NCBI GenBank assembly: GCA_035479935.1
Contig: DATIIF010000040.1
Location: 1-30,233 of the forward strand
Source of the DNA: Patescibacteria group bacterium
GTDB lineage: Bacteria; Patescibacteriota; Saccharimonadia; Saccharimonadales; JACOTW01
Direction of reading: 5' to 3'
DNA: 30,233 bases
Below are positions 7,736-26,965 of the stretch, one piece after another. The notes beneath the pieces are model-generated. The model ran no database searches and was not told where the DNA came from. It saw only the letters and a program-made list of their open reading frames with translations. Made by a program: the position numbers and the translations under genes. Positions within the stretch are counted from its first letter, which is position 1; the number at the start of each line of letters is the position of its first letter.

Positions 7736-8593
7736 ATGAGCTGGTTATTATTAACTTTTTTGTCTGTAATATCTCGCTCAATTTACGGCGTACTCACAAA
7801 GATTCTTTCAAATCAAGTAAAGACGTCTGTTTTCACTCAGGCGGCGCTTTTATCATTTGCGGGCGGTTTAATATCACTGCTAATCTCTCCGTTACTTGGA
7901 GGGCTAAGTGCTGATTTTTCAAAAGTCAGTCTCACAGTTGTTGCTTTTGTAATATTAGGGCAAGGTTTAGGAAATATAACTTATTTCCAGGCTATTAAGA
8001 AGCTTACCAATGGAACGGCACAAATCGCCTTTTCCTCGATTCTTGTTTTTAACACATTTCTTTCATTAATTTTCCTAAATCTTCACCTAACTCCAGTAAA
8101 TGTTTTTGGCGTCATTCTATTAATGCTCGCGATACTGAGCGTTACTAACGGTAAAGTTGAATTCAATAGAGAAGGAGTGCTTATGATGATATTCGCAGCC
8201 TTTTTATTTTCGGTTTTCCAACTTTCGAGTGCTAAGTTGTCAAAGCAAGTTGGAGCTACTACTTACCTGTTAATTGCTTATTTTGGCGCAGCTCTTGTCG
8301 TTTTTGCTTTGAAAACAAAAGTAATTGTTAAGGACTTAGCTCTACCTGATAGAAGATCAACTCTAGGATTGCCTTTGATAACAGCTGTACCAAGCTTAGG
8401 AAACTTTGCTTTTGCCTACTATGCTTATCGCGATGCGCCGCAACCAGCTAAAGTGGCAATGCTCTTGACCTCGCAGGTAGTGCTTACCGTATTTCTTAGC
8501 TATGTTTTCCTGAAAGAAAAAGGCCATTTTTGGCCAAAGGTCATCGCAGCGGCCTTAGTTGTTATTGCAGCAGTGCTAATCAAACGGGGATAA
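7736..8593 (+). CDS. EamA/DMT-family transporter
   Basis: 285 aa, about 10 TM helices in two repeats, C-terminal FLSYVFLKEK motif. Confidence 0.85.
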   Translation: MSWLLLTFLSVISRSIYGVLTKILSNQVKTSVFTQAALLSFAGGLISLLISPLLGGLSADFSKVSLTVVAFVILGQGLGNITYFQAIKKLTNGTAQIAFSSILVFNTFLSLIFLNLHLTPVNVFGVILLMLAILSVTNGKVEFNREGVLMMIFAAFLFSVFQLSSAKLSKQVGATTYLLIAYFGAALVVFALKTKVIVKDLALPDRRSTLGLPLITAVPSLGNFAFAYYAYRDAPQPAKVAMLLTSQVVLTVFLSYVFLKEKGHFWPKVIAAALVVIAAVLIKRG

Positions 8594-8613
8594 TACTTAA
8601 CTTGTTAAGTATT
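8592..8613. repeat. Dispersed palindrome copy at the convergent EamA/phosphatase junction
   Basis: AATACTTAAC-TT-GTTAAGTATT. It overlaps both stop codons. Confidence 0.85.
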
Positions 8614-9186
8614 TAGCTTAACTCCGTCAACCTCATGCAAAATATACGAGTCGTTCGCAACTGAGATATTAGCATAAGCACAATCGCCAATTTCAATTTC
8701 ACCTTCTTTTAGAATTTCTCGAAAAATATAGCGAATAGGTCCACCATGAGTTACGACTGCAGCGGTGGAATACTTACCAGTGTCTATCTTTTGCAGAGCT
8801 TCACGAATTCTTATGCCGAAACTATTATAATCTTCACCTTCAGCAACAGTAGAATGTTCATCAGCTAATAGTAATACTTGATCAGGAAACTTTTGTTTTG
8901 CCTCTTCTTTTGTAAGCCCAGTCAGTATCCCATAACGATTCCGTTCTCTAAAATTATCGATAGTTGTTAACGGTATGTTAATAGTGCGTCTTACAATTTC
9001 AGCTGTTTCCTTAGCTCTTATTTTTGGGCTGCAGTAAATGATTCCTATGTTCTTATCTGCTAATTTTCTAGCGACCCCTTCAGATTGCTGTTTGCCTAAA
9101 TCAGTTAGGTGGTCGTCATAATCCCCGCCGTATCTATTTTCAATATCACCAGTTGTTTGCCCGTGCCTTACCAAATAAATATTCAT
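8605..9186 (-). CDS. Histidine phosphatase (phosphoglycerate mutase family)
   Basis: YLVRHGQT, SPKIRAKET, FRER, VVTHGG motifs. Confidence 0.9.
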   Translation of the reverse strand: MNIYLVRHGQTTGDIENRYGGDYDDHLTDLGKQQSEGVARKLADKNIGIIYCSPKIRAKETAEIVRRTINIPLTTIDNFRERNRYGILTGLTKEEAKQKFPDQVLLLADEHSTVAEGEDYNSFGIRIREALQKIDTGKYSTAAVVTHGGPIRYIFREILKEGEIEIGDCAYANISVANDSYILHEVDGVKLNT

Positions 9187-25210: not shown

Positions 25211-25236
25211 AAAATACTTAACGTGTTAAGTATTTT
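25211..25236. repeat. Dispersed palindrome copy directly after the permease stop codon
   Basis: AAAATACTTAAC-GT-GTTAAGTATTTT, perfect 12-2-12. Confidence 0.85.
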
Positions 25237-25301
25237 TGCGCAGACCCAATTTCACTTTTTATTCCGCTAAACCCTAACCCCTAGTTTATAATTTAGGGCA
25301 G

Positions 25302-25370
25302 ATGAACGAACTCTTCGATCTATTGTCTATGTCTCCGCATTTGAGTGCTCTGCGGAGGTCGTGGGTATGA
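25302..25370 (+). other. Putative leader-peptide uORF (MNELFDLLSMSPHLSALRRSWV) coupled to murJ
   Basis: ATG 9 nt after TATAAT (25287-25292). TGA overlaps the murJ ATG (ATGA). The uORF spans a hairpin that covers the GGAGG SD. Confidence 0.5.
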
Positions 25371-26965
25371 ATCGATGGCTAACGCGCGCTAATCAGCGTA
25401 TCTCGCTACCAAACGCTGCCGCTTTATTAATTGGCACAGCGCTGATTGGGCAGCTGTTAGGCTTTATGCGCACTCAGGTGATTAATGGTAATTTTAACAG
25501 CCCGGGGCACATAACTACCGACGCCTACTTTGCTGCTTTTAAGATTCCAGACTTCTTTTTCTATACCATTGCAGCTGGTGCACTAGGTGTAGCCTTTATG
25601 CCGTTTTTGGCCGATAAGTTAGAACACGGTGATAAGCGTGCAGTTTGGCAGATAACATCTGGATTACTCAATCTACTGGGAATCTTGATGGTAGCTGTTG
25701 GCGTGATTATGCTGGTCTTTACTGAACCCCTGCTACGCTTGGTCGTTGGTCACAATTTAGGTCCGCAGCAAACCCATGATGCTGTGATGATCATGCGCAT
25801 TATCGCCCTAAACCCGCTGCTATTTACAATCTCGGGCGTCCTGACATCTTTACAACAAACTTTCGGCCGATTCTTTTTCTACGCTCTGGGCCCGATCATC
25901 TACAACGTCTGCATTATTACCAGTGTGTACATTTTTAAAAATAACTTAGGTTTAACTGGCTTGGCATATGGTGCGCTGGCTGGAGCTGCCTTGCAACTTC
26001 TAATCGTTTGCTTGGGCCTGAAGGGTATGAACTTCAAATATCAACCTATTATCAATATGCGCAGCGCTGATTTTCGGCGGATACTGCGCAATCTACCAGC
26101 GCGTTCAATCGACCAAGGTATCGACTCTATCAACTCAATAGTCGAAACCAACCGCGCCAGCGTGCTGGGTACTGGCCGTATTACTTTCTACGAGAACGCC
26201 TATACTCTGCATTTAGTCCCCATTCTGTTGATTGGCACTACCATTGCTACGGCCGCCTTTCCGCGGCTCAATGAGCGCTTGGCGCAAGGCCGTCCCGATC
26301 TTTTCCGCCGGGACTTTCTGCAGATACTCAGGGTTATGATCTGGATCATTCTACCGGTGGCGGTTATTACATTCTTTGCCCGCGCCTATTTTGCCCGCTT
26401 AATTTATAAGAATATTGCACCCGATATCGCTTTGATTTTGGAATTTTTAGTTGGCGCCATCATATTTCGTACTCTGTACGCTATAATTTCGCGCTATTTT
26501 TATGCCCAAAAAGACACCAGAACACCGCTATTTGTTTCGCTCTTTACTATTGCGCTTAACATCGTGCTGGCTTTCAAGCTGGCCAAGCCGATAGATTTAG
26601 GTGGCTACGGAATCGCCGGCTTGGCCATAGCCCAGTCTGTTGTGGCCGCTGTTGAAGTATTTATTCTGGTCACTATAATGCTCTGGCGTGACCATAAGCT
26701 GTTCGATGGTGAATTTTGGGGCGGTGTAGCGCGCAGCCTGTCAGTTACCGGATTTACGGTTATGACAACCTATACTCTGGTTCATATTTTTCAGCTGCAG
26801 AGTAGCGACCGCGGTTTTATAACTCTAGGTACTAAGCTATTTCTAATAGTCGTACCGACGTTCGCGGTGCATATAGCAATTTCGGCGCTTTATGGGCTTG
26901 ATGAAGTCAAGCCGGTAATTGCCAAATTACGCCAAGTTATGCTCAAACCTGTGCGGATTCAATAG
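25367..26965 (+). CDS. murJ: Lipid II flippase MurJ (MviN)
   Basis: LLGFMR, TDAYFAAFKIPD, GALGVAFMP, AAFPRL, FYAQKDTRTP. About 14 TMs. SD GGAGGT 7 nt before ATG 25367. Confidence 0.93.
   Translation: MNRWLTRANQRISLPNAAALLIGTALIGQLLGFMRTQVINGNFNSPGHITTDAYFAAFKIPDFFFYTIAAGALGVAFMPFLADKLEHGDKRAVWQITSGLLNLLGILMVAVGVIMLVFTEPLLRLVVGHNLGPQQTHDAVMIMRIIALNPLLFTISGVLTSLQQTFGRFFFYALGPIIYNVCIITSVYIFKNNLGLTGLAYGALAGAALQLLIVCLGLKGMNFKYQPIINMRSADFRRILRNLPARSIDQGIDSINSIVETNRASVLGTGRITFYENAYTLHLVPILLIGTTIATAAFPRLNERLAQGRPDLFRRDFLQILRVMIWIILPVAVITFFARAYFARLIYKNIAPDIALILEFLVGAIIFRTLYAIISRYFYAQKDTRTPLFVSLFTIALNIVLAFKLAKPIDLGGYGIAGLAIAQSVVAAVEVFILVTIMLWRDHKLFDGEFWGGVARSLSVTGFTVMTTYTLVHIFQLQSSDRGFITLGTKLFLIVVPTFAVHIAISALYGLDEVKPVIAKLRQVMLKPVRIQ

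Follow-up and report, generated by a model that had tools for sequence, protein, structure and literature searches.

A Decayed Start-Codon Insertion Element as a Putative Translational Relay Upstream of murJ in Saccharimonadales

The murJ gene of the window (the whole stretch of DNA analysed, 30,233 nt, from a 0.6-Mb Candidatus Saccharimonadales MAG, bin G000) is preceded by a 65-nt leader that, judged by comparison with related sequences, is a decayed and shortened copy of a structured, dispersed mobile element of about 194 nt, here called type A. The reading we favour, with somewhat better than even confidence, is that murJ was once leaderless, that a type A element was inserted and later reduced by an in-frame deletion, and that the remnant now acts as a constitutive coupling relay to murJ. 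The ancestral gene would have had its ATG 8-9 nt after the -10 box, and the structured, palindromic element of about 194 nt would have inserted on this start codon, duplicating ATGAA; an in-frame deletion of 129 nt would later have taken the core, leaving the 65-nt leader. The promoter-proximal ATG at 25302, at or no more than about 3 nt from the mRNA 5' end, would now open a 22-codon relay frame, and the murJ ATG at 25367 would be locked in the closing helix together with an element-borne SD, GGAGG. Ribosomes starting at the 5' AUG would unwind the closing helix and stop at the UGA of AUGA, and murJ would then be started either by the same ribosome (reinitiation) or by a 30S subunit on the freed SD, the mode of coupling being termination-reinitiation and/or RNA unfolding. 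Such a relay would be constitutive, letting an essential gene tolerate the insertion, and is not a demonstrated sensor. The start of transcription, the translation of the uORF and the dependence of murJ on it are points that we infer from the sequence, and the SD could also permit some direct initiation at murJ.

The features at the murJ start are collected in Table 1. The first-pass annotation had described a TATAAT, a gap of 9 nt, and then a 22-codon uORF ending in a TGA that runs into the murJ ATG; all of these lie where it placed them, with the TGA at 25368-25370 and the ATG at 25367-25369 forming the overlap ATGA. Its further claim, that CTCCGCA (25333-39) pairs with TGCGGAG (25351-57) and buries the SD GGAGGT, is borne out by complementarity and by the predicted fold; the SD (25354-25359) sits 8 nt upstream of the murJ ATG. 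The N-terminus of MurJ (MNRW...) aligns at residue 1 with all relatives. Logan contigs of four soil samples, all from one study and possibly including the source sample, give the leader region with zero differences.

Table 1. Features around the murJ start in the window (positions of the window)
Feature	Position	Strand	Description and basis
A+T-rich inverted repeat followed by T's	25212..25237	+	Just 3' of the ABC-2 permease stop; sequence read
-10 box of the murJ promoter, TATAAT	25287..25292	+	9 nt, then ATG 25302; homologous to the -10 box of relatives
Relay uORF, 22 codons (MNELFDLLSMSPHLSALRRSWV)	25302..25370	+	Begins at promoter-proximal (leaderless-type) ATG
Left copy of duplicated target ATGAA (old murJ start)	25302..25306	+	Empty versus filled sites
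Closing helix, 5' arm	25312..25339	+	Inverted copy of first murJ codons plus CTCCGCA 25333-25339; folds
11-nt loop in place of the deleted 129-nt core	25340..25350	+	Junction between two TGC repeats; alignment
Closing helix, 3' arm	25351..25378	+	TGCGGAG 25351-25357, SD GGAGG 25354-25358, murJ ATG and codons 2-4
murJ (lipid II flippase), 532 aa	25367..26965	+	Pfam MurJ PF03023, E 5e-62

The genes upstream of murJ are an ABC-2 transporter pair, and the A+T-rich inverted repeat that follows them is probably a terminator separating murJ from this operon. A near copy of the hairpin (AATACTTAAC..GTTAAGTATT, then T's) is present at 8592-8614 of the window, and the same hairpin lies 3' of the permease gene in four relatives (L048, L077, L084, and L086); it is probably a conserved terminator. 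A scan with a consensus terminator did not flag 25212-25237, because its stem is poor in G-C pairs.

The leaderless ancestry of the gene is indicated by its relatives. The survey drew murJ loci from 40 related genomes and 9 protein look-ups, with 80 further loci each from metagenomes and from genomes, and dereplication left 164 distinct Saccharimonadales loci. TATAAT or TATACT lies 7-11 nt before the murJ ATG in 118 of the 164 (leaderless, 72%), a leader of 26-278 nt is present in 43, and a recognisable -10 box is absent in 3. Throughout bin G000, TATAAT peaks 7-10 nt before first start codons and SD motifs peak 5-9 nt before other start codons, and therefore the organism mixes leaderless and SD-led genes; the use of SDs is read from this upstream motif peak, the 16S 3' end being absent from the incomplete bin. 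Three close relatives (L035, with 86% MurJ identity, L036, and L038) have the promoter of the window and lack the 65 nt, their homologous -10 box leading directly, at 8-9 nt, to the murJ ATG. In other strains from the same soil samples, homology ends exactly at 25367, and the -10 box is again 8-9 nt upstream. Given this layout in the nearest relatives, the uORF ATG of the window occupies the position of their murJ ATG. Position 25302 itself presents the arrangement of leaderless initiation, TATAAT, 9 nt, and an ATG with no SD. The spacing of 8-9 nt between the -10 box and ATG suggests a leader of 1-3 nt rather than a strictly leaderless 5' AUG, and a 5' UTR of 0-3 nt is predicted for the uORF. 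Each genome of the relatives gave one match, a single murJ, and the gene is therefore presumably essential.

The origin of the additional 65 nt is apparent in two relatives, L061 (78% MurJ identity) and L039 (83%), whose 194-nt leaders align with that of the window at both ends, while 129 nt (43 codons) are missing from the window between two TGC repeats. The 65-codon uORFs of these long leaders, to which the uORF of the window is homologous at both ends, start with MNK(L/F)VDSL...SHL and end with ...AAVRR... before the stop, and they have the same ATGA overlap and GGAGG as the window. The 129-nt deletion is a multiple of three and the frame is retained. The long leaders are predicted to fold very stably (L061: -94 kcal/mol, z -4.6; the type B leader of L037: z -5.6), with a closing helix that joins the early uORF to the SD, to the AUG, and to the opening codons of murJ; in L061, the 5' arm of this helix holds TCGATTCAT, the exact reverse complement of ATGAATCGA. 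This closing helix is retained in the window, where it is capped by the 11-nt loop. The long leaders have CTTCGCA where the window has CTCCGCA, so that a U-G pair with GGAG has become a C-G pair.

Of 400 Saccharimonadales genomes, 82 contain the core that the window has lost, each of them with several copies. Bin G000 itself contains 4-5 copies, with only the remnant in the window; full or partial copies are located at C59:4126-4219, C59:5250-5297, C10:409-463, and C72:5538-5575, and a further one precedes lepA on C58. The consensus of the core has 31 conserved pairs, of which 23 have compensatory changes, and highly conserved internal loops; no Rfam family corresponds to it. When the empty sites (L038, L035, and L036) are compared with the filled ones (L039 and the window), a clean insertion at the start codon is seen, flanked on both sides by ATGAA, the right copy in the window being 25367-25371. 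With many dispersed copies, and with empty and filled sites that display target duplication, type A shows two properties of small dispersed palindromic mobile elements. A single origin of the type A murJ leaders is rejected by the MurJ tree, on which type A requires 4 changes and has leaderless sister lineages (support 100/100).

The predicted structure at the murJ start is extensive. When folding begins at the predicted 5' end (25302), the stem has a probability of 0.9-1.0, and the 7-bp stem of the first-pass annotation is the tip of a predicted 24-bp hairpin formed by the two arms of Table 1, which also takes the murJ AUG and codons 2-3 into its pairs. The predicted energy of the helix is -23 kcal/mol; the SD is predicted to be unpaired with a probability of about 0, and the murJ AUG with one of 0.1-0.3. 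Folding begun at 25295, with 7 more upstream bases, gives a minimum-energy structure without the stem (z -1.0), and because the stem thus depends on the assumed 5' end, the leader was refolded from the predicted start at 25302, where the energy z-score is still only -1.5. The burial of the SD in the window is matched by 20% of shuffled leaders, the mean unpaired probability from -13 to +3 is 0.15 compared with 0.25 in the shuffles, and by our own estimate the chance of a 22-codon open frame in the required phase is roughly 0.1. For the window alone, then, the hairpin and the open frame are suggestive and not significant, being within what chance can produce, and significance therefore rests on the comparison with relatives. 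Across the 43 leaders, the mean unpaired probability from -13 to +3 is 0.28 compared with 0.38 in dinucleotide-shuffled leaders, and it is lower than the shuffles in 33 of the 43 (Wilcoxon p 6e-6). Of 51 leaders, 30 have GGAG or GAGG between -16 and -4, and none of 139 leaderless loci has either; therefore the elements bring the SD with them. Searched against Rfam, the leader of the window had no match, and 12 long leaders of relatives had only sub-threshold chance hits.

Conservation of the reading frame across leaders, with the leaderless-type spacing between -10 box and ATG, is indirect evidence that the relay is translated. Read from the promoter-proximal ATG, 33 of the 43 distinct leaders stay open as far as the murJ start, compared with 3 and 9 of the 43 for the control frames, and 26 of the 33 open-through leaders end in NTGA. 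The uORF stop is at +1 in 26 leaders (NTGA) and at +4 to +10 in 7; it lies 3-18 nt upstream in 8 and far upstream in 2, and in 39 of the 43 no more than 10 nt separate it from the start of murJ. In the window this is the ATGA at 25367-25370, a stop/start overlap of the kind associated with translational coupling. The length of the leader is 2 mod 3 in 30, 1 mod 3 in 11, and 0 mod 3 in 2, and no in-frame MurJ fusion or extension is found among the 43. Of 33 type A copies located elsewhere than at gene starts, 13 are blocked by stops in every frame, therefore the open frame is not intrinsic to the element. Taken across the leader families, the open relay frames argue that translational coupling is under selection, as has been proposed for the MIRUs of mycobacteria.

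Sorted by blastn, the leaders form 27 mutually unrelated families, 19 of which include an open-through uORF, although these family counts overstate independence because leader families share ancestry. The families include type A, to which the window belongs, type B, type C, and several short leader types. Type B is about 100 nt long with 13-bp terminal inverted repeats (termini CCCGTTAGACTCC / GGAGTCTAACGGG) and uORFs that begin MNPVR, and type C combines a long hairpin, made up of 7-nt repeats, with a small SD hairpin behind it that shows covariation; both are also multi-copy dispersed elements. Copies of type B at other genes are again on start codons, flanked by ATGAA or ATGGA. Type B occurs in L037, L083, L241, L245, and L250, and type C in L062, L072, L103, L253, and L254; the window's own genome has one weak type C match, at C46:3825-3950. 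The leader types are scattered over the MurJ tree, which makes the murJ start a hot spot of gain and loss.

Several individual leaders depart from the common pattern. An element without a through-reading uORF is found at murJ in L096/L067 and L028, and at ndk in L230 (G144:C1), where the type A element has the SD GGAGG inside its closing helix; the relay is therefore not obligatory. At L094:723-1004 the relay frame is a 93-codon ORF with a GIY-YIG nuclease domain (Pfam E 2e-15), which runs from a leaderless ATG (MNPVR...) to an ATGA overlap; it gave the sole Pfam domain match among the leader ORFs, those of 65, 37, and 67 residues having none. The codon aligned to the murJ start at L060:1001 is GTA, with no canonical in-frame start nearby and a relay uORF ending in TTGTAA; this GTA could be a sequencing error or an unusual start.

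A search of G000 for leaderless-type short ORFs ending on the starts of long ORFs gave 22 of 161, compared with 1278 of 12378 for controls, which is no clear excess. The same search revealed a case at lepA on contig C58, where a leaderless-type 54-codon uORF with a type A-like element (C58:4117-4281, minus strand) is located upstream of lepA (C58:2330-4108) and stops 8 nt before it, therefore the relay layout occurs at another gene too. The product of this lepA is 76% identical to the LepA of the window. The contig also contains a second murJ of the bin (C58:5664-7277, minus strand), only 62% identical, and since relatives have one murJ each, C58 probably derives from another Saccharimonadales strain (bin contamination 4.5%).

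If the leader is a neutral relic, then the uORF is untranslated or irrelevant, murJ is initiated from its SD as the hairpin breathes, and the open frame is coincidental. This is rather unlikely in our estimation, although it draws on a good SD (GGAGG with 8-nt spacing), on the weak statistics of the window taken alone, and on the element leaders at L230, L096, and L028 that have no through-reading uORF. The excess of open frames, the clustering of stops on the murJ start, and the lack of in-frame fusions are hard to explain if the leader is not translated, the 129-nt deletion kept the frame, and a predicted helix of -23 kcal/mol in which the SD is almost never unpaired stands before a gene that is presumably essential.

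The first-pass annotation had proposed instead that a leader-peptide or coupling switch gates MurJ synthesis. Its suggestion of uORF and hairpin control survives as translational coupling through a helix that buries the SD, which is the best reading because the layout recurs in L061, L039, and unrelated leaders, the stops lie near the murJ start, and the SD and AUG are more paired than in shuffles; peptide-specific stalling is not supported, and the leader is not a conserved murJ control device. The ATGA layout is indeed present in L061 and L039, and arises convergently in unrelated leaders, but 72% of the relatives are leaderless and have no uORF. In the arrest peptide systems ermC, secM, and mifM, a specific peptide and a signal are required. 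The murJ leader resembles them in that translation of a uORF can open an SD-sequestering hairpin, and differs in having neither a conserved peptide nor an evident signal. A regulated switch of this type, in which a cell-wall or ribosome signal would make ribosomes stall on the 22-codon peptide and so open the SD hairpin, is in our view quite improbable. The 5' arm of the helix does fall inside codons 4-13 of the uORF, therefore a ribosome paused there would free the SD, and the stem was kept after the deletion of the core and has a C-G pair with GGAG where the long leaders have U-G. However, the peptides vary even within the homologous family, those of the window, L061, and L039 differing at many residues and that of L049 being frameshifted yet still open, and for this reason peptide-specific stalling is unlikely; among the 27 leader families the encoded peptides are unrelated, and most relatives lack a leader altogether. 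At an ATGA overlap, a ribosome that simply reads on to the stop has already opened the helix, so no stall is needed, and nothing in the context suggests an inducer or any other signal that would gate the synthesis of MurJ.

The last alternative, an assembly error or frameshift that conceals a true murJ start at 25302 and a 22-residue N-terminal extension, is hardly credible: the two frames are one base apart in phase (65 nt is 2 mod 3), but the MurJ proteins of relatives all start MNR or MNK aligned to 25367, the assemblies of the four samples are identical with no indel variants, and the L061 and L039 leaders share the phase and the ATGA overlap, and an artefact or extension is rejected on the relatives' starts and the identical assemblies.

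The coupling relay may also be extended into a broader proposal, which we regard as unlikely and offer as speculation. Saccharibacteria would carry several unrelated families of mini elements adapted to jumping onto the start codons of leaderless genes, each supplying an SD together with an open frame and having a length of 2 mod 3, which turns the old start into a relay uORF. The remnant in the window would have been domesticated by the host, its core lost in frame and its closing helix retained and strengthened by the change from U-G to C-G, as a translational throttle tying MurJ output to the capacity for leaderless initiation.

Short palindromic repeats are familiar from other bacteria. 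The RPEs of Rickettsia, the Correia elements of Neisseria, and ERIC are short, structured, multi-copy, and patchy in distribution, and are tolerated in or beside genes. The Saccharimonadales elements are like them in being short, structured, multi-copy palindromic repeats with a patchy distribution; we know of no RPE, Correia element, or ERIC with a preference for start codons, an ATGA relay layout, or an inverted copy of the host flank in a closing helix.

In our assessment, the closest published parallel is the case of the MIRUs (mycobacterial interspersed repetitive units), mobile repeats that insert at start codons and whose ORF is coupled at a spacing of -4 nt; insertion barely disturbs expression because the stop of the ORF overlaps the start of the host gene (PMC12548453). 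Both are small, non-coding mobile repeats on start codons with an ORF stop that overlaps the host start. The two are not related in sequence, and the Saccharimonadales elements are strongly palindromic, with a closing helix that buries the host start. The ORF of a MIRU is coupled to an upstream gene, whereas the elements at murJ are on leaderless genes and their relay ORF begins at a 5'-terminal AUG; the copy in the window, moreover, is a deletion remnant. Models of coupling include RNA unfolding and ribosome scanning (PMC12548453), and the proposed constitutive relay would fit both. Coupling at ATGA and TGATG overlaps has been described (PMC6728339). In Mycobacterium tuberculosis, the uORF uPPE2 is essential for PPE2 through a tight stop/start overlap (PMC11260477). 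The murJ leader is similar in having a short uORF that tightly overlaps the downstream ORF, the need for the uORF having been tested there and being proposed here from sequence. It differs in that uPPE2 was studied experimentally as part of the expression platform of a B12 riboswitch, while the murJ leader has no evident ligand-sensing part. Leaderless short ORFs have been reported in mycobacteria (PMC4633059) and 5'-terminal uAUGs on Escherichia coli mRNAs (PMC4965119); in these, as proposed here, a short ORF ahead of the annotated gene begins at an AUG on the 5' terminus of the mRNA, but they are not known to arise by insertion of a mobile element into a leaderless start codon.

A literature search for a murJ uORF, for palindromic elements of Saccharibacteria, and for start-codon elements in CPR yielded no paper on any of these. 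Set beside the MIRUs, the insertions described here are similar and putatively coupling, but sit on leaderless genes, and the copy in the window is a decayed one. Such leaders are easily taken for regulatory leader peptides, riboswitches, or small genes in the annotation of Saccharibacteria and other CPR genomes. With its 27 leader families, murJ offers a mutagenesis series made by nature, in which the rules of termination-reinitiation can be read, including the stop positions that are allowed and the avoidance of in-frame fusions. If the coupling relay operates as proposed, it would explain why a cell-wall gene that is both essential and leaderless is not destroyed when elements land, time and again, precisely on its start codon: the former 5' AUG would become the start of a relay frame that carries ribosomes through the hairpin of the element to the rebuilt start.
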